Position numbers and translations under genes: made by a program
Notes under the pieces: model-generated
What the model was told of the DNA's origin: nothing
Database searches by the model: none
Seen by the model: the letters and a program-made list of their open reading frames with translations, nothing else
DNA from: a virus
Virus record (IMG/VR): IMGVR_UViG_3300045988_143938
Reading direction: 5' to 3' (one strand)
DNA length: 64,000 bases
Part shown: positions 7,103 through 62,405 of the stretch, piece by piece
Layout of the letters: each line of letters begins with the position of its first letter
Position numbering within the stretch: position 1 is the stretch's first letter

Positions 7103-7281
7103 ATGCTTGCGAGTTTGACGCTACAATATAGTGGCTGCCACCCCCATAGGTATAGTTAATGCTATATCTGCCTTTGGATAGGTTGAACAATGGGACAGGG
7201 CAGCCTTTTTCTTTGCCCTTCCGAAAAGCCGGATATGGGCAGGCTACCAGCCCTATAATGCCAATAAAGTTCAATAAATCT

Positions 7282-8082
7282 ATGGCAGAAATTAACAATT
7301 TGGGAGAACTGCTCCCTATCAGTGAAAACAACGGGAAAAAAGCCGTTAACGCACGTTACTTACATTCTTTTCTTGAAAGTAAACAAGAATTTGCTAATTG
7401 GATAAAAGGGCGTATTAATAAATACGACTTTGTAGAAGGAAAAGATTTTGAAACGCTCTATTTTGACTATCAAGGTAACTTATTGAATATCAGACATGAT
7501 AATTTTATCAAGTCTGAAAATCAGCAAGTTAGCAAAATAGAATATGCACTATCTATCGGCATGGCAAAAGAGCTTTCAATGCTCGAGAATAATGAACGAG
7601 GCAAACAAGCCCGAAAATATTTTATAGCATGCGAGGAAAACAAGCGTGAACTTTCCCGTAAGGAACTTCTTTTAATGGCTCTTCAAGCGGAAGAAGACAA
7701 GGAACGTTTAGCTTTGGAGAATGAAAAACAGCAGAAACAGATAGAAAGACTTAAACCTAAAGCTGATTTTGCTGAAAAAGCTTTTGCTATGGAAGGTAAG
7801 GTAGACATAGGCCAAGCCGCCAAAATTCTTAATCTTGGATATGGTAGAAACACCCTTTTCAAGAAGCTAAGGGAAGTTGGCGTATTCTTTGCAAATCGTA
7901 ATGAACCTAAGCAGAAATACATTGATGCAGGCTACTTTGAAATGACAGAAAAGCCTATATCAAGAAAAAATCATCCTGGATTTATTGTAATGGTTGTGAC
8001 ATGTACTCAAAAGGGATTAGCATACATCAATCACCTGTTTGGCGGCAATCCCTCAGACGGGAAATTAGCAAGAATAAGATAA
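7282..8082 (+). CDS. phage antirepressor (AntA-like N-terminus plus KilAC-type C-terminus)
   Basis: N-terminus: KKAVNARYLHSFLESKQEFANWIKGRINKYDFVEGKDFE (AntA pattern). C-terminus: KPKADFAEKAFAMEGKVDIGQAAKILNLGYGRNTLFKKLREVGVFF...KQKYIDAGYFEM (KilAC pattern). The start is taken at the MAEINNLG Met; the ORF-track start is 7159. Confidence 0.8.
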   Translation: MAEINNLGELLPISENNGKKAVNARYLHSFLESKQEFANWIKGRINKYDFVEGKDFETLYFDYQGNLLNIRHDNFIKSENQQVSKIEYALSIGMAKELSMLENNERGKQARKYFIACEENKRELSRKELLLMALQAEEDKERLALENEKQQKQIERLKPKADFAEKAFAMEGKVDIGQAAKILNLGYGRNTLFKKLREVGVFFANRNEPKQKYIDAGYFEMTEKPISRKNHPGFIVMVVTCTQKGLAYINHLFGGNPSDGKLARIR

Positions 8083-25314: not shown

Positions 25315-26136
25315 CTATTTTATAGGCGAAATCTTTCTGTCAGAAGGTTTCCCACCGAACAACTGATTGATATAAGCAAGTCCTTTGGGCTTACAAAGTA
25401 CCTTTTGATATAATATGTCGGGGTGGCTGTCTCTGTGTATAGGCGGTAACAGCGTCATTTCAAAATACCCGGCGTCAATGTACTTTTGTTTCGGTTCGTT
25501 CCTGTCTTTAAAGAATACGCCCACTTCCTTTAGCTTTTTAAAAAGGGTGTTTCTCCCGAAACCGAGGTTGAGAATCTTTGCGGCTTGGCCTATGTCTACT
25601 TTGCCCTCTGCTTTGAAAGCGGCTTCGGCAAAGTCGGCTTTGGGTTTTAGTTTGGCGTTCTTCTCTTCAAGCTGCTTCTTTTCTTGTTCTAATCTCGCCT
25701 TTTCCTCACGCTCATTTTTTAACTGTGTGGCAAGGCTGATAACAAGATCGGGGTTGTTTATCATCTGCTCCAAAGTTGGCTGCGTGGCGGTCATGCCGTA
25801 TTGGAGAAGCTCTTTGATGCGGTCATTGCACCATAAATAAAAGTCAGGAGAAAGCCATTGAGCGAAGATTAATGCCAAATCCTCATGTAACCATGTACCT
25901 TGATTGTTACCTCCTTGATTTACAGTAACTAAACCCGTTGCGGGAATTCCCGTTTTGGCTGATAATGAGCTAATTAACTCATTTGTCTGTTTTGTTGACA
26001 AAAAGTCATTACAGCGTTTTCCAAACGGTTTGGCCATTTCGGTGGCGTTCACCATTACACTATCGCCTTTCTGAAAGGTAATAGGACTTCCATTGTATTG
26101 GAAGATTTGATTTTCATTCAAGTGTCGCATAAACAA
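25315..26136 (-). CDS. antirepressor-type protein (KilA-N plus KilAC)
   Basis: N-terminus: ITFQKGDSVMVNATEMAKPFGKR...GTWLHEDLALIFAQWLSPDFYLWCNDRIKEL (KilA-N pattern). C-terminus: KPKADFAEAAFKAEGKVDIGQAAKILNLGFGRNTLFKKLKEVGVFF (KilAC pattern). Confidence 0.8.
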   Translation of the reverse strand: MFMRHLNENQIFQYNGSPITFQKGDSVMVNATEMAKPFGKRCNDFLSTKQTNELISSLSAKTGIPATGLVTVNQGGNNQGTWLHEDLALIFAQWLSPDFYLWCNDRIKELLQYGMTATQPTLEQMINNPDLVISLATQLKNEREEKARLEQEKKQLEEKNAKLKPKADFAEAAFKAEGKVDIGQAAKILNLGFGRNTLFKKLKEVGVFFKDRNEPKQKYIDAGYFEMTLLPPIHRDSHPDILYQKVLCKPKGLAYINQLFGGKPSDRKISPIK

Positions 26137-29169: not shown

Positions 29170-32100
29170 TTATATATTAATCTTTCGTTTCCCTTTGTCT
29201 ATAACCATACCCACTAATCCCATAAACTCCTTTAACACAGCCAAGTTGGCTTCTGTGTTTTGAGCACTTCTTAGCGTATTGTTAGCTATCGCTCTTAATT
29301 GCGTTAGTTGCTGTTCTGCGAGAATATTGTACTTTGGGAAAATTTCATTTCCTAATTTTTCAAGAAGAGCACGTTTTACACTTACATCCTGTCGGATGCT
29401 ATTCAGGTATGAACCTAAAAGGTTTGCCGTATCTTCTGTTACACCTTGTATTCCTTTTGTTAATCCGGAAGTGGAAGATTCCCCGGTAGCCGTAAGCGCT
29501 CCTCCGGTAGCTTTATCAAAGGTTTCAAGGAAAGATTGTGAGGCATCTATCATGGCTTTCCCCTCATTGTCGAAAAAGTCTTTTATAGCCCCTGCTGCAA
29601 CAGCGCCATTATCTTGAATATCCGTAAACTCCTTAAACAGGCCTTTTTCTCCGAAAAGTTTATCCTGTAACTTTTCAAACATGGGCTGTATTACCAAGTT
29701 CTTTAATATGTTGTTGGCAACACTTCGCATGATGTTGTTCACTACGTTGTCAAAAGCCTGCGCTGCATCTTCTCCGTTGGCAAAGGCTTCCGTTAACGCA
29801 TCACTTATCTGACTTGCCCAATCCTGAAAATCTATTCCGTACAAATCTTTGGTAAGGTCTTCCACGAAATAGGCGATTTGCTCGTTCAGTTCCGCAAGCT
29901 GGTTCTTATAGTCTTGTATCTTTCCTGCATCAGATTTCTTTTTCCCTTCTTCGTTTCTTAATTGGCCCTCTATCTCTGCACGTTGAGAAACAAGTCCCAC
30001 GTATTGGGCCTGATATTGTTTAAGGACGCTGTTATCAAGTTCCTTTCCTACGCCAACCTTTTCCAATGCTTCCAGCGCTTCCTTGTCTACACCTATTTTA
30101 AAGTTTAATCCCATAAAACGCTGCATCCCGGCAGGAAGGCTCTCCATTGATTTTATCCGTTTTTTTAATTCTTCCACATAGTCCAAACCCTCGTCTTTTA
30201 ATACTCGGAATTGCATTTTATAGCTTTCGGTAAGCGAACTCCCGGCGCGTTTAACTTGTTCTTCCAACTGTTCATATAGCAATATGGCACGCTCTATACT
30301 TTCGTCTCCACCAAGCGATCTGTCTATGGATTTTCCTAATTGATCGTAGGCGGACTTTAATTCCTCAACTCTTTGTTTGCTACGCTGGATACTTCTTTCA
30401 AGTCTTTTGTCATGTAGTTGCGCAATGCTTCCGATAAAACCGGTTATCCCACCGACTATACCGGCGGCTCCTTGCATTATAGCCATAGGATTTCCACTGG
30501 TAATTCCGGCAAAAAGGGTTCCTCCGCTTTGAGCAATGTTTAATAGTCCTCCTCCAACACTTTGAATTGTACTTAACGCGTCGGCCATACTGTCATTTCC
30601 CAAAGTATCGAACATAGAACTTAGATTACCTAATGTTCCAATGAGTAGATCAGACATTTCTATGATCTCCCCAAGTCCTATGCGTACCTTGTCAGATGAG
30701 CCAGTTTGCTTGTCTTGTGCATCAGTAACATTTTTTTCGGCATCCGCTAAAGTCTTTAGTTTAGGTACTAATTTATCAACAACCTTAGTCCGATAAGATA
30801 AACCACTATCCGTTCTTTTTGTTTCAGTATGGCTCGTGTCTGAAACGCCAGTAATCACCTTGCCCCCGTTTTGGATAAACGCAAGTTCTTGTTGAGCTTT
30901 TTTCAACTCTTTGGTAGCTTCTACGTACTCCTTTATTCCATTTGATAACGTCTTAAAAGGATTTCTGCTCTCGCTCTCATCGCGCAGCTTCTTTAATACA
31001 TTGATAAGCTCTTTGAACTCGTTGACTTTTAGGCTTTGCCCGGTAGTGTTTTTAAAATCCTCTAAATTTTTAATTAACCTATCAAGCGTTGCGGAAGACA
31101 ATCGGTCAAGATCATCGAAGGTTTTTGCCCAATCTTCTGAACTTTTGAATTGCTCAAATTTGATTGATGCGACATCTTCGCCCGCTTTCTCTTTCCTTTG
31201 TGTTATAAGTCTATCGGTAGCTTCTTCTCCAAACTTCTTTCTTCGACTTTCAATATCCGCTAAATCTTTTTGAAGATTGCGTTCAATGTCTTCTATCTTT
31301 TGGGAATAGTCCTTATAATCTTCTATCATGCCTAAAAGATTATCAAGGCTTTCCGACCGCATTTTCTTGCCCTCCTCGCTTATTGCTTGATACAGCTTTA
31401 AAACGGCTCCTTCTCCGAATTGCTTCTTTACATCATCCTCTTTCATGGCAAGGACATCAGTAATGGAAAACTTGCTTCCTGTCTTTTTTAGGGCATCTCC
31501 AAGCTGATTGCGGAAATCTTCAACAATGCTTTCAAATGATATGTTTTCACCGAAAGCAATGTTCATGGAAAGCGCTTTGTTTCCGGTCGCTTCAAATAGC
31601 TTTTTATACAAGTCCCATTTCTCTCCGGCTTGAGAGACATATTTCTCTATTTCCTTTAAGGCGTTATCGGCTTCTTTTTTTGCGTTTTCAATCTGCTCTT
31701 TGTCTATCTTAACGCCAAGAGAAACATATAAATCTTTTTGCTTCTCCTTGCTTTGATCCAGCTGGTTTTGGATATACTTGTACGCCTTACTCGGATCGCT
31801 CAAGTCTAAATTTACCCCCTTGCTATCAAATACTGGTGCAAATTCGGGTATATTCTTTACTCTTTGGGCGGCCGATTCTTCCCCCTCTATTTTCCTCCAT
31901 TTCTCGTAGCTGGATATAGCTTTTTCTATGAGGTCGGCACGATTCTTCCATTGCTCGGCAATAGGGTCTTTGGCTGTATCTGTTGACTTTTCTCTTCCGC
32001 CTAACGTTTCGTATATTTTCCTTGTCGTATCAAGTTCTTTGTTATAGGACGCTAATTGTTTTTCTGAAAATTTATTATCCGGATTAAGGCTGTCTATTTT

Positions 32101-34131
32101 CTTTTTTAAATCACTTATATTAGTAGACAACCTGCTCATGTATTCTTCATACGATTCACTCTCTTTAGGCTTTATGACATTCAAATCTCCAGCGAGCAAG
32201 TTTGCTTCCTTTTCCCAATCAGTCAATGGTTTACTTATATCTATTTGGCTCATCGAATGATAAGACTGTCTGGCTGTATCTATAATGTTAGCCAAGTCTA
32301 AACTTTGCTTTTCAAGTTCCAACAGTCTGTTTCTTGCTTTAGTAATATCCTCCGGTTTATATTTGGCAAAGGATAGTTCTCTTCCTGTCTCGTCAAACCT
32401 TCTATATCCACCCTCTCTGATAATCCCGGCAAGCCTTTCTCTTTCAACATCTACGCTCTGCTTTTGTATTTGCGCATTTGCCATGGTGCCGATAAATTGT
32501 TTTTTGTACAATTCCTTTTGCTCTTGAGAAAGTTTTCGCATCTTCTCAACAGAAAGGGATATTGCTACTCCGTATTTGTCTGTTTGGGCTACTGCATCCT
32601 TGAAGGTGTTAGATAAGTTCTTGGTTATACGTCCTAATTCCCTGCTTTCTTCTGCGCTTTTGTTGGCTTTTTGGCTAAGGGTTTCGTATCGGTCTATAAG
32701 TCCGTCAACGGCCTTGTTCCCCTTCATCTTATCGTTCGTATCGGAAATAGTCTTATTTAAATCTGTAATAACTTCTGTTGTAGTTTTGACTTCCTCTCGA
32801 AACATAACCAATGCTCCTACTACGGTTCCGATAAGAGTTATAATCCAAATTATTGGATTCTTTTTCATTGCAGCGTTTAACGCATTTTGCACAACCAGTA
32901 ATCCCTTAGTTGCGACATTTGTCAACATAACAGCAGTTCTATACGAACCATATACAAACGCCAACATGCCAAGTATATCGGCAACGGTTTCCCAATGTTT
33001 CATCAGCTTGGTAAGTATTTCCAAACTATCAGAAAGGACGCCGCTATTACCCTCTGCAATGTCTGCCATCATTACATCCCAAGCATCTTGCAAGTTGCTC
33101 CATTTACCCGCAAGACTTTCTGCGAGAGCTTCCTGCATGTTGTAGAATTTCCCGCCTTCATTGGTTAACTCCCAAAGAACATCTTTCACCATGCCAAAGC
33201 TGACTTCTTTTCGGCTGATCTTATCGAATACGTCTCCAGCACTGACAACTTTATTTTCAAGAACGGTAAACCGTTTCGCCAGCTCATCAACTAACGGAAT
33301 GCCTGCTTCTGTGAACTGTCTAAGCTCTTGCCCGCGAAGAAACGCGGCACTACGAACTTGTCCGTATGCCAATATGATACGTCCCATATCAACACCGACA
33401 CCCGCGGAAATATCAGCAAGCCGCTTAGTCGTATCGTAAAGCTCTTCGTAGGGGATACTATATGCAGAAAGCTGTTTTGCGTATGACGCTAATTCCTTAA
33501 ACTGGAACGGGGAAGCCACCGCTAACTCCTTGATGCGGTTGAATATCGTTTCAGCTTTCATGCTATCCCCGATAATAGAGGTCAGTGCGATGCGTTGTTT
33601 TTGGAACTCCCCACCAATGGTATATAATCCCCTAACAAAACGCTCTACTGTATATATGGAATACACGTTGGCGATTTGATTTCTTAACTCTCCGGCTATT
33701 CGAGACTGGGAAGACATGGTTGTATTTGCCCGCTTCATAGCGGAATTATGCGTATCTGCGGCTTTTGCTGCTTGTAAACGGACGTTTCTAAGCTGCTCAA
33801 GGGCTTTTTGAGAGTTGGCGTAAGCGTCGGCACGCATTATTTGAGAAACACCCCTCATGGCTCTTAATTCGCTTGTATTCACACCTTGCCCTTTAAAGGT
33901 TTCTGTAAGCTTCTTGATACTCTCACTATCCACCTCAAGCTTCACCTTGTACGTCTTGTTTTTCAGCAAGGAATCTACTTTATCCTCAATCTCTTTTACA
34001 TCAACCTTCAATCCTACTTTCGCGCTGACGGTTGCGTGCATGTTGACGAGCTTTTTTTTGATAGCTTCGTATTCTTGTGGTGTATAGTCTTTCAGGTGAA
34101 TCCCAAAATTCAAATTTCCGAGGTCTGCCAT
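29170..34131 (-). CDS. tail tape measure protein (1653 aa)
   Basis: Size, position after the chaperone pair, long coiled-coil stretches, and Gly-rich hydrophobic segments (for example GIVGGITGFIGSIAQL). Confidence 0.9.
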   Translation of the reverse strand: MADLGNLNFGIHLKDYTPQEYEAIKKKLVNMHATVSAKVGLKVDVKEIEDKVDSLLKNKTYKVKLEVDSESIKKLTETFKGQGVNTSELRAMRGVSQIMRADAYANSQKALEQLRNVRLQAAKAADTHNSAMKRANTTMSSQSRIAGELRNQIANVYSIYTVERFVRGLYTIGGEFQKQRIALTSIIGDSMKAETIFNRIKELAVASPFQFKELASYAKQLSAYSIPYEELYDTTKRLADISAGVGVDMGRIILAYGQVRSAAFLRGQELRQFTEAGIPLVDELAKRFTVLENKVVSAGDVFDKISRKEVSFGMVKDVLWELTNEGGKFYNMQEALAESLAGKWSNLQDAWDVMMADIAEGNSGVLSDSLEILTKLMKHWETVADILGMLAFVYGSYRTAVMLTNVATKGLLVVQNALNAAMKKNPIIWIITLIGTVVGALVMFREEVKTTTEVITDLNKTISDTNDKMKGNKAVDGLIDRYETLSQKANKSAEESRELGRITKNLSNTFKDAVAQTDKYGVAISLSVEKMRKLSQEQKELYKKQFIGTMANAQIQKQSVDVERERLAGIIREGGYRRFDETGRELSFAKYKPEDITKARNRLLELEKQSLDLANIIDTARQSYHSMSQIDISKPLTDWEKEANLLAGDLNVIKPKESESYEEYMSRLSTNISDLKKKIDSLNPDNKFSEKQLASYNKELDTTRKIYETLGGREKSTDTAKDPIAEQWKNRADLIEKAISSYEKWRKIEGEESAAQRVKNIPEFAPVFDSKGVNLDLSDPSKAYKYIQNQLDQSKEKQKDLYVSLGVKIDKEQIENAKKEADNALKEIEKYVSQAGEKWDLYKKLFEATGNKALSMNIAFGENISFESIVEDFRNQLGDALKKTGSKFSITDVLAMKEDDVKKQFGEGAVLKLYQAISEEGKKMRSESLDNLLGMIEDYKDYSQKIEDIERNLQKDLADIESRRKKFGEEATDRLITQRKEKAGEDVASIKFEQFKSSEDWAKTFDDLDRLSSATLDRLIKNLEDFKNTTGQSLKVNEFKELINVLKKLRDESESRNPFKTLSNGIKEYVEATKELKKAQQELAFIQNGGKVITGVSDTSHTETKRTDSGLSYRTKVVDKLVPKLKTLADAEKNVTDAQDKQTGSSDKVRIGLGEIIEMSDLLIGTLGNLSSMFDTLGNDSMADALSTIQSVGGGLLNIAQSGGTLFAGITSGNPMAIMQGAAGIVGGITGFIGSIAQLHDKRLERSIQRSKQRVEELKSAYDQLGKSIDRSLGGDESIERAILLYEQLEEQVKRAGSSLTESYKMQFRVLKDEGLDYVEELKKRIKSMESLPAGMQRFMGLNFKIGVDKEALEALEKVGVGKELDNSVLKQYQAQYVGLVSQRAEIEGQLRNEEGKKKSDAGKIQDYKNQLAELNEQIAYFVEDLTKDLYGIDFQDWASQISDALTEAFANGEDAAQAFDNVVNNIMRSVANNILKNLVIQPMFEKLQDKLFGEKGLFKEFTDIQDNGAVAAGAIKDFFDNEGKAMIDASQSFLETFDKATGGALTATGESSTSGLTKGIQGVTEDTANLLGSYLNSIRQDVSVKRALLEKLGNEIFPKYNILAEQQLTQLRAIANNTLRSAQNTEANLAVLKEFMGLVGMVIDKGKRKINI

Positions 34132-34139
34132 GTCGATTG

Positions 34140-34951
34140 TTATTTTGTGTCCTTTTTAATAGCGTTAACGCCGTTTACTATAAAATCATTAAGAGATATC
34201 CTTTGTCCTTTAGCTTCCTGCTCTTTCCTTTTTGCCTCCCATTTTTTTGTCAGCTCTTTCATCTCTTTGGAAGTGTGCATTCCCTTGTCTACCTTATCGT
34301 CATTATTGTACACCACAATAGGAGCATCGCATATAAGAAGCTCATACAGAGCATTGGTAAGCACCCAGTCCATGTACCAGTTAGGGATATTCACCATTCC
34401 CCAAAAGAGAACGAGAGGGCGGGTTAATTCGGGATGTTTTTCTCCGTTTGCAAAGGCTGCTCCTGCCGAAGTTCTTGAAGGATACGATCTGCTTCCTTTC
34501 TCGTCATCGTCATCACTGTGTCCTTCATTCCTGTCAAGAACATGGTAATGTTCAAGTATTGAAGTCTCTGAAATTCCACTTTTTTTTTACCAAGAGCGAC
34601 GACACTTGTCAGTTCTTGGTCTGTATATTTCTTCCACAGCATGCGCCAATGTATCCAATGGAAAAGCCTTATTTTCCACCAGTTATTCAGGATTATAAGA
34701 GACGCACATCGGGCTGTCACCTCATCGTCTTGTTTACATGATATAAAGGTGTGTGTCAGCTTTCTTATCGTTCCCCGGTGAAGCCACTTTATTCCAATCT
34801 CCTTTTCGCGAAGAGATACATAGTCTGTGCTGTTTTCAAGCACTTCATCAAGTCTTTCCTGTTCTACCGAAGTAGGTTGAGTTATCGTTTTGTCGTTCAT
34901 AATGTTTTGAGGTGTAAAAAGAAAAGGCGGCGGCATAAAGCTCACCGCCAT
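34140..34951 (-). CDS. GT-like chaperone fusion via -1 frameshift at the A9 tract
   Basis: The -1 frame is closed by TAA at 34587-89 (inside the A run) and then stays open from 34586 to the stop at 34140. It is exactly the -1 frame of the G ORF. Confidence 0.5.
34424..34951 (-). CDS. tail assembly chaperone (G-like)
   Basis: Lies between the tail tube and tape measure genes. Contains the A9 tract at 34580-88. Alternative start at 34900 (MNDKTI). Confidence 0.6.
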   Translation of the reverse strand: MAVSFMPPPFLFTPQNIMNDKTITQPTSVEQERLDEVLENSTDYVSLREKEIGIKWLHRGTIRKLTHTFISCKQDDEVTARCASLIILNNWWKIRLFHWIHWRMLWKKYTDQELTSVVALGKKKVEFQRLQYLNITMFLTGMKDTVMTMTRKEADRILQELRQEQPLQTEKNIPN

Positions 34952-34956
34952 TAATA

Positions 34957-35780
34957 TTAGGTACCAGTACCAGCCTGTGTAACTTCTACTGCTGCTGCTT
35001 TGCTTGCGGTAGAAATGTTCACAATGGCAGTTCTTGCAGATGCTCCATTATTTGCATCAACCTTGACCGTTACCACTTTGCCGCTTACGGAAGTCTTGCA
35101 CCATGTTTCTGTTGATGAAGCAGATACTGGGCTTTCTTCTGTTGTAGCTGTAATGGTCTTCCCTGTATTATCAGCGCTGCTGACGAAAGACAGGGAAGTA
35201 GGAGCTACGGTCAGGAGGCTTTTTTTGTTAAGAACGCGATATTGTCGTCAGAAGCAGCAGTGGACGCTGCACCGTCTTCAATTTCAATCGTTCCACTAAG
35301 CGCAAATGCAAACGGAGTGGTGGATGCGTTCTCGAACAACGGGCGTGCGTAGATAGCCATTTTCTTAACCAATATACATTTCTCTCCGTCTTCGCTCAAC
35401 AACGCAAAACCTGCATTAATCTTCTTACTGTTCAGAGTTACGGAGATTCCGGAATACTCTTGTCCGTTTACGGAAGCAGTTGCTACCTTGTTGGCTTCTC
35501 CGAGGAAGAAACTAACCAAATCCTCGCTTATACTCGGTACGGTAGCCGCAAATGTAATGTCACCTGCCGTACTTGTTACAGCCCAGTCCGCTTGAAGCCC
35601 ATGTACCTTTGTACGGTTCAACGTGGGTTCTGCTTGGGACAGGTTCAGGGAATCCACAGTAACGGGCAAGTCAAAGTCCGGCTCCACTGTTGCAAAGTCG
35701 GCAATACCACCCTTTACCAGCATGATAGAAGAAAGACCGCTAAACACTTCTTTCAACTCTTGTTTTGATTTCATTGCCAT
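34957..35780 (-). CDS. tail tube-BACON/Ig-like fusion via -1 frameshift at A_AAA_AAA_G
   Basis: The 0 frame ends ...ACA AAA AAA GCC TCC TGA (A7 at 35220-26). The -1 frame continues for 87 codons, SLLTVAPTSLSFVSSADNTGKTITATTEESPVSASSTETWCKTSVSGKVVTVKVDANNGASARTAIVNISTASKAAAVEVTQAGTGT, to TAA at 34957-59. Confidence 0.6.
35211..35780 (-). CDS. major tail (tube) protein (189 aa)
   Basis: Positional call: last gene before the chaperones and tape measure. Typical size. Confidence 0.7.
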   Translation of the reverse strand: MAMKSKQELKEVFSGLSSIMLVKGGIADFATVEPDFDLPVTVDSLNLSQAEPTLNRTKVHGLQADWAVTSTAGDITFAATVPSISEDLVSFFLGEANKVATASVNGQEYSGISVTLNSKKINAGFALLSEDGEKCILVKKMAIYARPLFENASTTPFAFALSGTIEIEDGAASTAASDDNIAFLTKKAS

Positions 35781-40415: not shown

Positions 40416-40482
40416 TCACCTATTTTCTATAAAAACAACATTATAGACATATTTTTATGGGTAAAATTTAGAAAATAGATGA
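40416..40482. promoter_or_regulatory. motif locus 3: TCACCTATTTTCTA (40416-29) and GGGTAAAATTTAGAAAATAGATGA (40459-82), inverted pair in the divergent late promoter region
   Basis: Each copy lies next to a -7 box, at 40408-15 (minus) and 40490-97 (plus). Confidence 0.65.
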
Positions 40483-40489
40483 AAAATCG

Positions 40490-40497
40490 TATATTTG
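40490..40497 (+). promoter_or_regulatory. -7 box TATATTTG
   Basis: Exact match 7 nt after the 14-mer and 78 nt before the terL ATG. Confidence 0.5.
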
Positions 40498-40527
40498 CAC
40501 TATATATTACTCATAGAGCTGTGAATC

Positions 40528-40574
40528 AAGCCGGAGTATGCAAAATCATATTGCATGCGACGGCTTATTTTTTT
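40528..40574 (+). terminator. leader terminator C immediately before the terL start codon
   Basis: AAGCCG 40528-33 pairs with CGGCTT 40561-66, with an inner ATGCA/TGCAT stem, then A + T7 (40568-74). The ATG is at 40575. Confidence 0.55.
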
Positions 40575-43265
40575 ATGGAATACGACGGAATTGTACATAC
40601 AAAAAATGGAGAGGGCGTATTTACTTATGCGCACATGGAAAAGCTGCGTGAATATGGAAATCCGCTTAATATAATCGCCCAAAAAGGATGTCAAGAAAAG
40701 TTCCTTGCGTCTCCGGCAGATATTACTATATTTGGAGGAAACCGTGGTGGCGGAAAGGCGCTGATATTCAATGAATTAGTGTGTACTCCGTTCGGATTTA
40801 GAAAAATCCAAGACATTAAAGCCGGCGACATAATCACTGGCCTTGACGGAGGAATGCAAAGGGTTGTTTACAACTCCTATCAGGGATTTAAAGAGTGTGT
40901 AAGACTTAAATTCGTTGACGGCTCTTATGCTGACTGCTGCATAGATCACTTATGGAATATCAAGCAATCTAACCATTGTTCAAAGAAAAGGGCTTTATAT
41001 AACCTCCCCTTAGAGGATGAATGGCGGGTGTGGACTACTCAAATGATTATAGACCACATGGAAAAGCAGAAGGGGAAGAAGCAGCCGCGCCATTTATCTG
41101 TTCCGTTGTGCAAGCCAGTTCGATTCACCAAAGGGAAATACTTCAAGCCTAAATTCAGTCCGTATCTGATTGGTGCGCTCATCGGGGACGGATGTATTGC
41201 CGATAGTGTAATCAGTAAAAACTGCTGTTATTTATTTAATCCTGACGAGGAAGTCATTGGCGAGTTCAAGAAATCAGTAGGGTATTCTTCTTGCGAGTTT
41301 GAGAAAGGCTGCTACCGCATGCGCATCAACGACAAAGAGCTTATCGCAGAGATTCAGAAATTGAATATAACAGGGCGTGCGGCAGATAAACACGTTCCTG
41401 ACATGTATTTATATGGGTCGCTGGAGGAAAGATGGGCGCTTGTTCAGGGCTTAATGGATACCGACGGAACTATTGATGAAAGAGGGCACCTGTCTTATAC
41501 TACAATAAGCAAACAGCTTGCGGAAGATGTAAAATTCCTTATCAACAGTTTGGGAGGATTGGCGACGATTGGCAGAGGCACCGCGGGGTATAGAAATAGC
41601 AATGGAAAATTTATCCAATGTAATGACGCATACACTCTTTATATAAGAATCCCGGATGCCGAAAGGATGTTTCGCGTAAAAAGGAAAAAGGAAAGATGCA
41701 AACCTTATAATGGCGGAATAAGCATCAATGCGAGAAGAATTATAGGCTACGATATGATAGGGAAGAAGGAGTGTTGCTGTATTGCAGTAACCAATCCGGA
41801 TAGTTTGTTTCTGACAAGGGATTTTATTGTCACCCATAATTCTTGGGCCTTGCTAATGGAGGTCTTGAAAGATATAAATAACCCGAATTTTGCTTCTGTA
41901 ATCCTGAGAAACGAAAAAGAGGACTTGAGTAATATAGTAAACAAGTCTTATGAACTTTTCTCTCAATACGGAAAGTACAACCGCTCTATCTCGGACATGA
42001 CTTGGAACTTCTATAACGGAGGTTTTTTAAAGTTTTCCTATTATGCGGATTCTTACGAAGACTTCGTAAAGCGTTTTCAGGGAAAAGAGTTTGCCTTTAT
42101 CGGTATAGACGAAATCACTCACTCTGATTACCTGAAGTTCAAATACCTTATTACCAACAACCGTAATGCCTACGGTATAAGAAACCGTTTTTATGGCACA
42201 TGTAACCCTGACCCGGATAGCTGGGTACGTAAATTCATAGACTGGTGGATTGATGAAAACGGTAACCCTATTCCGGAGCGAGACGGGGTAATACGCTATT
42301 GCTTCATGGATGGCGACCGACCGGAAGATATTTACTGGGGGGATTCCGTAGACGAAGTTTATAACCAATGCAGGCATATCATAGATCCGTTGCTTACGCC
42401 GGGTCTTATCAGTAAGGGTTACGACAAGTCGGCATTCGTGAAGACAGTCACATTCATAAAGGGAAAGCTTGAAGAGAACGTTGCTCTTATATCTTCCGAC
42501 CCTAATTATTTAGCCAACCTGGCCCAGCAGGACGAAGAATCTCGCGCAAGGGACTTGGAAGGGAACTGGAACTTTAAAGCTGCCGGGGATGATATTATCA
42601 AGATGGAACACATGGAGCGCTTCTTTAAAAATACCGCCCAATACGGAGACGAGAAGCGTAGGGTATCATGCGATATTGCATACGAGGGAGGAGACAACCT
42701 TGTCTTGTGGCTGTGGATCGGGAACCATATCGAAGATGTATATGTGAGTAGGGATAATTCCAAGCGGACGGAAGAGTGTGTTGCCCATAAACTTAGAGAG
42801 TGGGGCGTGCTGGAAAAGGATTTTGTTTTTGACTTAAACGGCCCCGGCCAGGATTTTAAAGGGAAATTCCCCGATGCGGTCAGGTTTAATAATATGGCTG
42901 CTCCAATACCCGCGACAAAAGCGGATGAGAAATCAATCAAGTATGTGTACTCCTCTTTAAAATCACAGTGTGCGGATATTCTTGTAAAAAAGATAAAGAA
43001 CGAGGAGATATCCATAAATCCCGATTTGTTATCGCGCAAATTCTCCGGTAACGGATATTCCGGAGTAACCCTTTATAATATTCTTATGAAAGAGAGAAAG
43101 GCTATTCGGGACGCGGAAACAGACAAAGGGTTTGCCTTGATTAAAAAGGAAACTATGAAAAAATACGTCGGGCACTCTCCTGACTTTATAGAAGCGATGA
43201 TTTACAGACAAATTTTTGATATAAAAAAACATAACACAAAACCAAAAGGATTATGGAGATTATAA
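40575..43265 (+). CDS. terL: terminase large subunit, intein-containing precursor
   Basis: Walker A GGNRGGGK|...|S is interrupted. Walker B is FAFIGIDEITH. GTCNPD is present, followed by a nuclease-half-sized C-terminus. The start is set at MEYDG because the track start 40479 overlaps the promoter motif. Confidence 0.9.
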   Translation: MEYDGIVHTKNGEGVFTYAHMEKLREYGNPLNIIAQKGCQEKFLASPADITIFGGNRGGGKALIFNELVCTPFGFRKIQDIKAGDIITGLDGGMQRVVYNSYQGFKECVRLKFVDGSYADCCIDHLWNIKQSNHCSKKRALYNLPLEDEWRVWTTQMIIDHMEKQKGKKQPRHLSVPLCKPVRFTKGKYFKPKFSPYLIGALIGDGCIADSVISKNCCYLFNPDEEVIGEFKKSVGYSSCEFEKGCYRMRINDKELIAEIQKLNITGRAADKHVPDMYLYGSLEERWALVQGLMDTDGTIDERGHLSYTTISKQLAEDVKFLINSLGGLATIGRGTAGYRNSNGKFIQCNDAYTLYIRIPDAERMFRVKRKKERCKPYNGGISINARRIIGYDMIGKKECCCIAVTNPDSLFLTRDFIVTHNSWALLMEVLKDINNPNFASVILRNEKEDLSNIVNKSYELFSQYGKYNRSISDMTWNFYNGGFLKFSYYADSYEDFVKRFQGKEFAFIGIDEITHSDYLKFKYLITNNRNAYGIRNRFYGTCNPDPDSWVRKFIDWWIDENGNPIPERDGVIRYCFMDGDRPEDIYWGDSVDEVYNQCRHIIDPLLTPGLISKGYDKSAFVKTVTFIKGKLEENVALISSDPNYLANLAQQDEESRARDLEGNWNFKAAGDDIIKMEHMERFFKNTAQYGDEKRRVSCDIAYEGGDNLVLWLWIGNHIEDVYVSRDNSKRTEECVAHKLREWGVLEKDFVFDLNGPGQDFKGKFPDAVRFNNMAAPIPATKADEKSIKYVYSSLKSQCADILVKKIKNEEISINPDLLSRKFSGNGYSGVTLYNILMKERKAIRDAETDKGFALIKKETMKKYVGHSPDFIEAMIYRQIFDIKKHNTKPKGLWRL
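40758..41840 (+). mobile_element. intein (361 aa) with LAGLIDADG homing-endonuclease domain, class-3-like
   Basis: Block A: ALIFNELVCTPFGFRKIQDI. Block B: GSYADCCIDHLW. LAGLIDADG motifs: LIGALIGDGCI and LVQGLMDTDGTI. Block F: ECCCIAV. Block G: FIVTHN, followed by Ser +1. Confidence 0.8.
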
Positions 43266-52471: not shown

Positions 52472-53605
52472 TTACAATTTACTGTCCATCTTTTCAAATT
52501 CTTCTTGTACGGACTTGTTTAGCACTTTGGCGTAGATCTGTGTAGTTTTTATATCCGTATGTCCCATCATTTTTGCAAGGTTTTCAATCGAAACTCCCAT
52601 ATTCAATGCCATAACCGCAAAACTATGCCGGGCCATGTGCGAATGTAGGTTTTGTTTTATCCTCGCGAGCTCCTGAACGACTTTCAGTCTTAAATTATAC
52701 TGATAGTTGCTTATTACGGGCAGTTTGAAATCGTATTTTTGCAGAATTTCCATTGCGGGCTTAAGAAGCATCAGGAAATACTCTTCTTCCGTTTTTACTC
52801 TTACGTCTCTTATAAAGAATTTGTTCCCTTTCTTGATTACACCGCTAAAATCAAAGTTGAACAAATCTGCATAAGACAAACCCGTAAAACATTGGAATAC
52901 GAACAAGTCTCTAACCCGTTCAATGCTCTCGGATGCCGTTTTTAAGCCTTGTATTTGCTTTATCTGTTCTAAGGTGAGGTATTTTATACCTTCGCTCTTT
53001 CCGCGCTCAAATTTGAGCTTATTATACGGGTTGTCTTTCAGCAAATCATATTTGATGGCTTCGTTTATATATCTTTTCAGGCGCTTATGATAACCATGTA
53101 TTGTCGTCTGCTTGTTGTACTTCCCATGAAGGAAATTGTCATAGTGCATTATGTTAGCCGTAGTAACGTCCGTAAAGTAAACGATCCGACCGAACTCTTT
53201 CAGGGATGTTATTAAGGAGGCATGCGTATTTAACGTTCCTTGCCTGAGGTCGGTTCTTTCGCCCACTCTCCGTTTTATAAAATCTATAAAGCTTTCTTTT
53301 GTTTGGGAATACTTTAAAAAGTGTTCCAGCTTATCAAAACTGAAAGGTTCTTTGTTTTTTACCAACCCGTTTATGAACTCGTTGATGTTCCGCATTTGCG
53401 TATCAAGCCTTTCGTTGAGGTCTAAAGATTGAACGGTATTCTTAACCTTTGTTTTTTCGCTCCATTGGTCGGAATACAACCGAACGCCTGTACTTAACCA
53501 TTTTCTTTTCCGTTCAAACAAAATTTCTATTTGAACGGTTCCTTTCGTTGTCTTGCTTGCCGTATGTTTACGGTCAAAAACAAACCTTAATACTGGATAC
53601 TTCAT
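52472..53605 (-). CDS. int: site-specific integrase (Bacteroides-type tyrosine recombinase, 377 aa)
   Basis: The N-terminal MKYPVLRFVFDRKHTASKTTKGTVQIEILF arm-binding style is typical of Bacteroidetes integrases. C-terminus: HMARHSFAVMALNMGVSIENLAKMMGHTDIKTTQIYAKV. Confidence 0.9.
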   Translation of the reverse strand: MKYPVLRFVFDRKHTASKTTKGTVQIEILFERKRKWLSTGVRLYSDQWSEKTKVKNTVQSLDLNERLDTQMRNINEFINGLVKNKEPFSFDKLEHFLKYSQTKESFIDFIKRRVGERTDLRQGTLNTHASLITSLKEFGRIVYFTDVTTANIMHYDNFLHGKYNKQTTIHGYHKRLKRYINEAIKYDLLKDNPYNKLKFERGKSEGIKYLTLEQIKQIQGLKTASESIERVRDLFVFQCFTGLSYADLFNFDFSGVIKKGNKFFIRDVRVKTEEEYFLMLLKPAMEILQKYDFKLPVISNYQYNLRLKVVQELARIKQNLHSHMARHSFAVMALNMGVSIENLAKMMGHTDIKTTQIYAKVLNKSVQEEFEKMDSKL

Positions 53606-61571: not shown

Positions 61572-62405
61572 ATGAACACTTCAATTATTAAATTCGATTA
61601 CAACGGAAATCAAATTCCTTTTGAAAAAGGAGATGATGTAATGGTAAACCTTACAGCTATGGCAAAAGCCTATCCTGATAAGAATTTATCCACAATTGTT
61701 AACTCGCAGGAAATCAGTGATTATTGCGCATCACTTTCCAAACTAAAAAATTTTAGTTTGGCTGATTTACTGATAGTTAAGAGAGGCGGAGATAATCCTG
61801 GTACTTGGGCTCACCGTCTTGTCGCTATTCGTGTTGCACAAAAACTAAATTCCGATTTAGCGGTGTGGGTGGATATGAGAGTAGATGAGCTTCTTAAATA
61901 CGGTATGACCGCCACGCAGCCAACTTTGGAGCAGATGATAAACAACCCCGATCTTGTTATCAGCCTTGCCACGCAGTTAAAGAGCGAACGCGAGGAGAAA
62001 CAAAGGATAGAGACGGAGAACTTGTATCTAAAAGAACAGAACGAAGCTCAACGCCCAGCTGTAATATTTACAGAAAGCGTAAAGGTAAGTAGTACGAACA
62101 TACTTATTGAAGACCTCGCAAAACTCATTACTCAGAACGGATATAAAATCGGAGAAATCAGATTGTACAATTGGTTTGTGGATAATGGGTATTTGGTACG
62201 GCACAAGAGATGGAGCAATTCAAGAAGGAAATACGAGAACTATTACACCCCAACACAGAGGGCTGCGGAAATGAAGCTGTTTTGGGTATCAGAAAGGGTT
62301 ATTTCAAATCCGGGTCAACCACAGTTTACAAGATTTACATGTTATGTAACCGGAGAGGGACAGGTATATTTCATTAATAAATTCAATAAATTAAAAGTTG
62401 CATAA
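61572..62405 (+). CDS. antirepressor-type protein (KilA-N plus ANT-like C-terminus)
   Basis: IPFEKGDDVMVNLTAMAKAY...GTWAHRLVAIRVAQKLNSDLAVWVDMRVDEL is the KilA-N pattern. The linker YGMTATQPTLEQMINNPDLVISLATQLK is identical to that of 25315..26136. Confidence 0.8.
   Translation: MNTSIIKFDYNGNQIPFEKGDDVMVNLTAMAKAYPDKNLSTIVNSQEISDYCASLSKLKNFSLADLLIVKRGGDNPGTWAHRLVAIRVAQKLNSDLAVWVDMRVDELLKYGMTATQPTLEQMINNPDLVISLATQLKSEREEKQRIETENLYLKEQNEAQRPAVIFTESVKVSSTNILIEDLAKLITQNGYKIGEIRLYNWFVDNGYLVRHKRWSNSRRKYENYYTPTQRAAEMKLFWVSERVISNPGQPQFTRFTCYVTGEGQVYFINKFNKLKVA

Follow-up and report, generated by a model that had tools for sequence, protein, structure and literature searches.

The window analysed here is the whole of a 64,000-nucleotide stretch of viral DNA (IMG/VR record IMGVR_UViG_3300045988_143938), and our subject is the end of its major tail (tube) gene, where a programmed -1 frameshift is predicted to append a BACON domain, an immunoglobulin-like (Ig-like) module, to some of the tail subunits. 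The tube open reading frame (ORF) lies at 35211-35780 on the minus strand and, in the 0 frame, encodes a short product of 189 amino acids (aa), recognised from the ORF listing, its position and its predicted fold. This product ends in ...AFLTKKAS*, or, written out, ...DDNIAFLTKKAS*. The last codons are TTA (35231-29), ACA (35228-26), AAA (35225-23), AAA (35222-20), GCC, TCC and TGA (35213-11); because they include ACA AAA AAA, the run of seven A residues (A7; longer runs are named likewise) forms the slippery heptamer A_AAA_AAA (35220-35226, minus strand) exactly in the X_XXY_YYZ register of the 0 frame. The two AAA codons are invariant among 60 distinct fused-ORF sequences, and CTGACCGT is invariant across all module-bearing sequences. 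The 0-frame stop UGA (35211-35213, minus strand) follows two codons past the slip site and also supplies the first three bases of an RNA helix, S1, described below. Read in the -1 frame from 35220, the sequence gives SLLTVAPTSLSF...VEVTQAGTGT (in a longer excerpt of its N-terminal part, SLLTVAPTSLSFVSSADNTGKTITATT...VEVTQAGTGT), that is, a BACON/Ig-like extension of 87 codons followed by a stop at 34959-34957 (34957-35220 in all, minus strand). The long product would thus count 274 aa, with the predicted junction ...LTKK-SLLTVAP... and the junction-spanning peptide ...AFLTKKSLLTVAPTSL.... An earlier reading of the same DNA from its letters alone (hereafter the sequence-only reading) had proposed this arrangement; every coordinate that it gave, for the ORF end, the register of A7 at 35226-35220, the 87-residue -1 frame and the stop at 34957-59, proved correct, and the -1 reading reproduces the junction that it had claimed.

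A terminator-like hairpin with a T-run (34928-34950, minus strand) stands directly after the extension stop and not behind the 0-frame stop, which places the BACON segment within the tube transcription unit. In the extension of the window, no ATG, GTG or TTG start giving an ORF of at least 40 aa was found: the earliest GTG leaves just 39 residues, and none precedes the first beta-strand (TVAPTSLSF). By itself, A7 is unremarkable in the window, since 29 A/T runs of at least seven occur there. What goes beyond chance is the combination of the register, an 87-codon open -1 frame, a recognisable domain and conservation.

The tube protein matched no Pfam and no PHROG family. In the nearest GenBank phages, LoVEphage, BI-TP1 and PV4-TP1, the tube protein is about 25% identical, and blastn and tblastn searches of GenBank phages returned only LoVEphage-type relatives, with 88 nucleotides (nt) at 77%. 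Its predicted structure was judged from the AlphaFold2 (AF2) model of a natural in-frame fusion, P0002 (98% identical). This model has a mean predicted local distance difference test score (pLDDT) of 86.5 and consists of an N-terminal tube domain and a beta-sandwich at residues 190-270, with a low-confidence linker between them. When it was compared with the PDB by Foldseek, the best matches were siphophage tail-tube proteins, some of them of about the fused length (Douge 8zdj_S at 1.2e-7, 8vhx_H, 9jgh, 6xgr, which is the YSD1 major tail protein, and those of Chi, Bxb1 and JBD30); in BFVD, major tail proteins ranked highest, among them a Lactococcus 936 entry named 'major tail protein extension'. 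The assignment to the tail tube, already made in the sequence-only reading, is borne out by the predicted fold and the gene position, and by these two attributes the 189-aa protein is the tube protein, in a sequence family that is undescribed.

We next consider the domain encoded in the -1 frame. The extension matches the Pfam BACON family PF13004 with 31.5 bits, above the cut-off of 25, and PF19190 (viral BACON_2) with 24.7 bits for the same cut-off, so that the profile search suggested in advance for the supposed BACON/Ig-like module recovers it above threshold with the first family and at 24.7 bits with the second. Among the extensions of nine diverged lineages, eight match PF13004 (best E 2.4e-11) and five match PF19190. 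A profile built from these diverged extensions also matches the BACON domain of a Bacteroides ovatus GH5 enzyme (PDB 3zmr, E 0.0016), and the Ig-like part of the AF2 model comprises eight strands over residues 191-269, with a pLDDT mostly above 90. By profile and by model, the extension is a BACON domain with a predicted Ig-like beta-sandwich.

The arrangement was then compared across 92 loci from independent assemblies, the window included, whose tube proteins are 63-99% identical. The 0-frame stop and an open -1 frame of 83-87 codons are present in all 92; the slip tract is A7 in 88 of them, with the window counted, and A9 in the other four. The 80 IMG/VR contigs, with tube proteins 79-99% identical, all carry CAAAAAAAG and the same stop two codons on, and no stop interrupts their -1 frame for 86 or 87 codons, two lengths that differ by a frame-preserving 3-nt indel. 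The arrangement is kept in the distant lineages, in which the extension falls to about 56-65% identity: P0030 (63% identical in the tube protein) and P0027 (69%) have A7, and P0025 (70%) has A9, in register. IMG/VR scans with P0030 and P0069 as query returned no loci. Across lineages, the pairwise ratio of nonsynonymous to synonymous divergence (dN/dS) in the -1 frame is 0.04-0.44, with dS about 1 or saturated, and the variable sites are distributed 46/41/79 over the three codon positions. On these comparisons, the -1 frame is under purifying selection. Conservation of the A-tract and of the open -1 frame, which had been named beforehand as a check, thus extends to all module-bearing relatives, down to 63% protein identity.

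Apparent natural alleles with one more A, that is, A8, were found in six assemblies from at least three sublineages, and they encode exactly the predicted in-frame fusion, ...LTKKSLLTVAP... (proteins P0002, P0013, P0018, P0019 and P0020). Four of these loci are intact (L095-L097 and L108) and two are decaying (L106-L107). Contigs with A8 came from ERR11777982, ERR11770397, ERR10101632 and ERZ28565082. The share of A8 among the member sequences of the protein clusters is very roughly 6-14%. In the L106/L107 lineage, which was seen in two samples and has 103 cluster members, TGA has become CGA and a premature TAA follows after 28 extension residues, and the BACON module looks to be in the process of loss. 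The sequence-only reading had held that a true tract length other than A7 would undo the frameshift; as the general state no other length applies, since A7 is found in 80/80 IMG/VR contigs and in most other loci, and A8 does occur in a minority.

A conserved RNA three-way junction follows the heptamer, all of its arms lying on the minus strand. The closing helix S1 pairs UGACCGU (35207-35213), which starts 6 nt past the heptamer and includes the 0-frame UGA, with ACGGUCA (35064-35070), which provides the codons for T238 and V239 of the fused protein. Helix S2 pairs CUUCCCUG (35191-35198) with CAGGGAAG (35158-35165), 93.5-94.3% of alignment cells being paired, and helix S3 pairs ACCAUU (35152-35157) with AGUGGU (35072-35077) and holds two pairs with compensatory changes (CG to UA in three sequences for one; UA to CG in three and to AU in one for the other). 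The 170 nt past A7 have a minimum free energy of -54.3 kcal/mol, with z -3.5 against dinucleotide shuffles; against two protein-preserving nulls, in which synonymous codons were reshuffled or redrawn, z was -3.7 and -3.0, respectively, and 1/500 randomised sequences was as low in each. Applied to 29 distinct sequences, RNAalifold returned S1, S2 and S3 unaided. The share of paired cells in the three helices is 96.7%, and it drops to 36-50% once the partner columns are displaced by 1-3 positions; S1 pairs in 29/29 distinct sequences, and the covariation score was reached by 0/500 shuffles. A local outer helix (35209-35203 with 35149-35144) had been considered and was dropped for the long-range S1, with just 64% of its cells paired. 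No Rfam family matched the junction.

The same arms stand out at the codon level. In the fused 274-codon ORF, 84 columns are invariant in amino acid and have a degeneracy of at least fourfold, and in seven of these the codon is frozen as well. One of the seven lies near the start codon; the other six are in the extension (CTG190, ACC191, TCC196, GGG207, ACG238 and GTC239) and are exactly the S1 and S2 arms. Frozen codons thus make up 6/27 of such columns in the extension versus 1/57 in the tube body (Fisher p 0.004). Since S1 is invariant, its support comes from these frozen synonymous sites and not from covariation.

Relatives that lack the module indicate where the tube protein proper ends. 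They comprise P0042 (60%), P0028 (70%), a group 37-39% identical to P0042, the cultured relative PV4-TP1, which has no extension, and genome-encoded relatives; their tube genes stop at the same ...IAFLTK... position. On this alignment, the extension begins where the complete tube core ends, and the short form is a full-length tube protein. At the module-less loci, a G+C-rich inverted repeat (identified by eye) and then the chaperone gene come directly after the tube stop, and the lysines at the end are coded by AAG or lie in an A-run of at most five (16/17). A rule that the A-run occurs only where the module is present was tried and given up: 16/17 module-less loci agree with it, and L122 breaks it. 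This locus, on a contig binned as Lachnospiraceae, has a tube protein with 39% identity that ends in ...AWLKKKATA*, and shows A9 at about 2050-2080, no module and a -1 frame of 15 codons. A scan of GTDB genomes with a single-protein query gave nothing; with an alignment as query, it gave seven distant tube relatives, of which four are from Bacteroidota (a Bacteroides metagenome-assembled genome, Barnesiella and two Segatella) and three come from bins that bear the labels Lachnospiraceae, Bacilli and Spirochaetaceae. The module is lacking in the five of them with 3' ends read. Taken with the one decaying A8 allele, the module-less lineages suggest, indirectly, that the BACON domain is dispensable, as is the extension of phage SPP1.

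We consider it likely that these features reflect a programmed -1 ribosomal frameshift that gives both tube and tube-BACON subunits. The frameshift advanced in the sequence-only reading is supported by the in-register heptamer, the conserved -1 frame and the 3' structure; from these we infer the ribosomal nature of the slip, its efficiency and the co-assembly of the two forms in the tube. Most ribosomes would end at the UGA after ACA AAA AAA GCC TCC, having completed the 189-aa tube subunit. Some would slip back by one base on A_AAA_AAA, with both lysine tRNAs on the heptamer, aided by the three-way junction, whose helix S1 would stand at the mRNA channel entrance, 6 nt downstream. The slipped ribosomes would read ...TKK-SLLTVAPTSL... 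and add the 87-residue BACON domain, yielding the 274-aa subunit. Both forms would then co-assemble on the tape measure, and a set proportion of subunits would show BACON on the tail exterior.

Four other routes were weighed against this one. An identical product would arise if RNA polymerase added one A on A7 or A9, the fraction of mRNA with A8 then encoding the fusion. Bacterial RNA polymerases slip at runs of the length of A9 (reviewed in PMC5009743), and A9 is what the P0025 lineage and the chaperone site downstream (see below) use. A7, however, is a short run for RNA polymerase to slip on efficiently, the tract keeps to the exact X_XXY_YYZ register, and the 3' structure is conserved together with frozen sites, as expected of a ribosomal stimulator; to our knowledge, a 3' RNA structure has no known role in polymerase slippage. 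The conserved junction with its 6-nt spacer and the frozen sites appear to favour ribosomal -1 frameshifting over transcriptional slippage, which we regard as unlikely, though less so where the tract is A9. A mixture of A7 and A8 at the level of DNA, akin to phase variation, would make the BACON form only from A8 genomes, and A8 alleles were indeed assembled in at least four sublineages and make up the minority of cluster members given above. The prevalence of A7 in the IMG/VR contigs and elsewhere argues against such a mixture, as does the finding that lineages with A7 are under purifying selection in the -1 frame, which implies that A7 genomes must express it. Moreover, P0020 has other frame errors, suggesting noisy reads, and one A8 lineage is decaying; we find this explanation very improbable.

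The BACON segment could also be made as a separate small protein, unfused, from a non-canonical start or by termination-reinitiation. Gene callers do sometimes call an ORF of 54-83 aa here, and in the P0027 lineage (L109-L111), at about 2059-2075, tandem stops overlap an ATG in GGC TGA TGA CCG (TGATGACC); A7 and helix S1 are still kept in this lineage. Against a separate protein, no ATG, GTG or TTG precedes TVAPTSLSF in the window and in most lineages, the heptamer is invariant, natural in-frame fusions exist, and a free 8-kDa domain would be without an evident route into the virion, so that we see very little chance of the segment being made unfused. Finally, the segment might be the silent remnant of a former in-frame tube-BACON fusion broken by a 1-nt deletion. 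In-frame BACON fusions on other tube-size phage proteins, and the one decaying lineage, fit such a history. It is contradicted by the selection analysis: every A7 or A9 lineage has 83-87 open codons in this frame at a synonymous divergence of about 1 or at saturation, the dN/dS values lie well under 1, and an indel that keeps the frame is present. We give a dead remnant almost no credence.

Several points weigh against ribosomal frameshifting as the route to a tail-borne adhesion domain. The support consists of sequence and models, and runs of A7-A9 also allow RNA polymerase to slip and give the same protein. With regard to the junction, S1 shows no variation, and the stop codon also constrains the three bases at its start; S2 shares its sequence with conserved BACON motifs (PTSLSF and NTGKT); the small number of compensatory changes traces to three or four deep lineages; and the P0027 lineage has lost part of the S3 pairing. 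The ATG of that same lineage may start an independent 83-aa BACON protein by termination-reinitiation. The A9 at L122, at a locus without the module, implies that an A-run at this place is not always a recoding signal. As to function, the BACON domain of BoGH5A (3zmr) reportedly does not bind the glycan of its enzyme, and glycan binding by BACON therefore cannot be assumed; adhesion to host-cell or mucosal glycans through the domain is a conjecture.

The addition of Ig-like domains to phage structural proteins by frameshifting, which the sequence-only reading had called an established theme, has precedents in SPP1, in Listeria phages, in A2, in T3 and in the 936 group (PMC6316719, PMC5009743, PMC6669499). 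In SPP1, a +1 shift at CCC_UAA yields gp17.1 and gp17.1* at about 3:1, the latter with an 87-residue FN3-type domain (Auzat et al. 2008, as summarised in PMC6316719). As there, two tube subunits would come here from one gene through a frameshift at the ORF end that adds an 87-residue Ig-like or FN3-type surface domain; the SPP1 extension is non-essential and borne by a fixed minority of subunits, and a frameshift of the G/GT type in the chaperone genes lies just downstream (PMC6316719), as it would here. Unlike that of SPP1, which is a +1 shift linked to tRNA scarcity, the shift here would be -1, at A_AAA_AAA, with a predicted 3' RNA structure; the domain is BACON and not FN3, the host group is Bacteroidota and not Bacillota, and there is no sequence homology. 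Ig-like domains are likewise added by frameshift to the major tail proteins of Listeria A118, A500 and PSA (+1) and to the capsid proteins of Lactobacillus A2 and coliphage T3 (-1) (PMC5009743), and phages of the Lactococcus 936 group carry TpeX, an extension of the major tail protein (PMC6669499). In all of these, as proposed here, recoding adds a C-terminal Ig-like or carbohydrate-binding decoration to some structural subunits; the shift sites, the directions and the domain families differ, and none of them is from Bacteroidota and none involves BACON.

With respect to the stimulator, the insertion sequence IS911 combines A_AAA_AAG with a 3' three-way junction and an upstream Shine-Dalgarno stimulator (cited in PMC5009743). 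IS911 resembles the present case in its A-rich heptamer of lysine codons and in the three-way stem-loop junction behind it as 3' stimulator, an activity that is predicted in our case. In contrast to IS911, the junction here spans about 150 nt within expressed coding sequence and its closing helix holds the 0-frame stop, and the two are not related in sequence. We found no description of a ribosomal -1 stimulator of this kind in the literature or the Rfam families searched. What is new here is the conserved RNA element, the host group and the domain type; the recoding trick itself is known.

Structural proteins of crAss-like and other gut phages are known to carry BACON domains (PMC6949934, PMC8008677, PMC13370021), and an engineered phage that displayed BACON associated more with epithelium and mucus and was better retained in the gut (PMC13370021). 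The extension belongs to the same families (PF13004/PF19190) and, like these, would be part of a structural protein of a Bacteroidota phage; unlike it, those domains are encoded in ordinary ORFs, often as tandem repeats, and on other structural proteins. Neither a natural frameshift-encoded BACON nor a tube-borne one is described in PMC6949934, PMC8008677 or PMC13370021, and none of the peptides of the extension occurs in the supplements of PMC13370021.

Searched for homologues, the 87-aa extension gave 2 matches in a word-indexed search and 350 in an exhaustive one, the latter including many proteins in which BACON-like stretches occur singly or repeatedly, as many as 16 times. Among them are phage proteins of 228-261 aa with one C-terminal in-frame BACON, 44-58% identical, namely P0094, P0131, P0137, P0138, P0146, P0161, P0166, P0180 and P0215, whose N-terminal domains belong to PHROGs 17745, 6767 and 14600, all of unknown function; P0137 has the same ...SLLTVAP... 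junction. At L114, a homologue of phrog_17745 occupies the tail-tube position, and a long downstream ORF there has no Pfam match. When the tube protein was aligned by hhalign with the BACON carriers of phrog_17745, 6767 and 14600, the score was dominated by the BACON part. Because one of these PHROG families occurs in the tail-tube position, BACON is probably carried in frame on tube-size proteins elsewhere, the role being read from gene position only. Bacteroidota largely do without Shine-Dalgarno interactions, and Bacteroides uses translation signals unlike those of E. coli. It is possible, although we lean slightly the other way, that a recoding cassette accompanies the BACON module wherever it moves, in which a junction of about 150 nt within the BACON coding sequence, with the stop in its closing helix, would constitute a -1 stimulator of Bacteroidota.

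The tube gene lies in a tail module of familiar order, with the major head protein (phrog_29) and head-tail genes upstream and a chaperone pair and the tape measure downstream. The G ORF of the tail assembly chaperone (34424-34951, minus strand) was taken from the ORF listing, and homologues stand downstream of the tube gene in all relatives. The start chosen by the ORF finder, ATG 34951, falls inside the terminator-like hairpin; judged by the relatives, the true start is probably the conserved MNDK(T) at 34900. The chaperone slip site, GGT AAA AAA AAA GTG, is an A9 at 34580-34588 (minus strand) that is kept in relatives, as A9 in nearly all and as A8 in one assembly, and from it the -1 frame of the T part, as read from the sequence, is open to a stop at 34140 (34140-34586, minus strand). 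This site agrees with the classical G/GT frameshift, of the lambda type reportedly described by Xu, Hendrix and Duda in 2004, in that an A9 lies between the genes for tube and tape measure and the -1 frame is open into T. It would be a separate recoding event, the product of which is an assembly chaperone and not a virion decoration. Two poly-A recoding sites would therefore lie 640 bp apart, and the second site that had been claimed within that distance, the A9 at 34588-34580, is real and conserved. A third in-register A7 (ACA AAA AAA TGG, 34242-34248, minus strand) within the T part of the chaperone opens a -1 frame of 10 codons and is probably incidental. The tape measure protein of 1653 aa follows at 29170-34131 on the minus strand (Pfam TMP_3, 63.4 bits).

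The window, with a G+C content of 40%, appears to derive from a gut Bacteroidales phage. It encodes an SPP1-like portal and a large terminase, together with a tyrosine integrase (52472-53605, minus strand) that carries Arm-DNA-bind_5, a Bacteroidota-type arm-binding domain; in view of the integrase and its companions, it is a temperate siphophage or prophage. Three antirepressor-like genes, each with KilAC (ANT), are located at 7159-8082 (plus strand), 25315-26136 (minus strand) and 61572-62405 (plus strand), two of them also with KilA-N and one with AntA. The large terminase, of 928 aa (40479-43265, plus strand), has Terminase_6N at aa 455-698 and LAGLIDADG_3 at aa 320-373, an arrangement that points to an intein or to an inserted homing endonuclease. 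A search for tRNA genes in the window gave none.

The lineage is a widespread, uncultured one of Bacteroidales temperate siphophages, from which more than 100 contigs were retrieved. If the proposed frameshift is correct, a BACON domain can hide behind it on the most abundant tail protein. Gene callers overlook such a domain or wrongly report it as a very small ORF, and ORF surveys therefore under-count decorated gut siphophages; adhesin-like tail decorations would be systematically under-counted. Ig-like and BACON domains on the virions of gut phages are the proposed basis of adherence to mucus and epithelium, and through the A7/A8 polymorphism populations may be able to alternate between tails that are decorated in part and tails that are decorated throughout. 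The compact recoding cassette of A7, a 6-nt spacer and a three-way junction would lend itself to studies of frameshifting in Bacteroides, and would provide a model from nature for displaying proteins on phage tails in sub-stoichiometric amounts.

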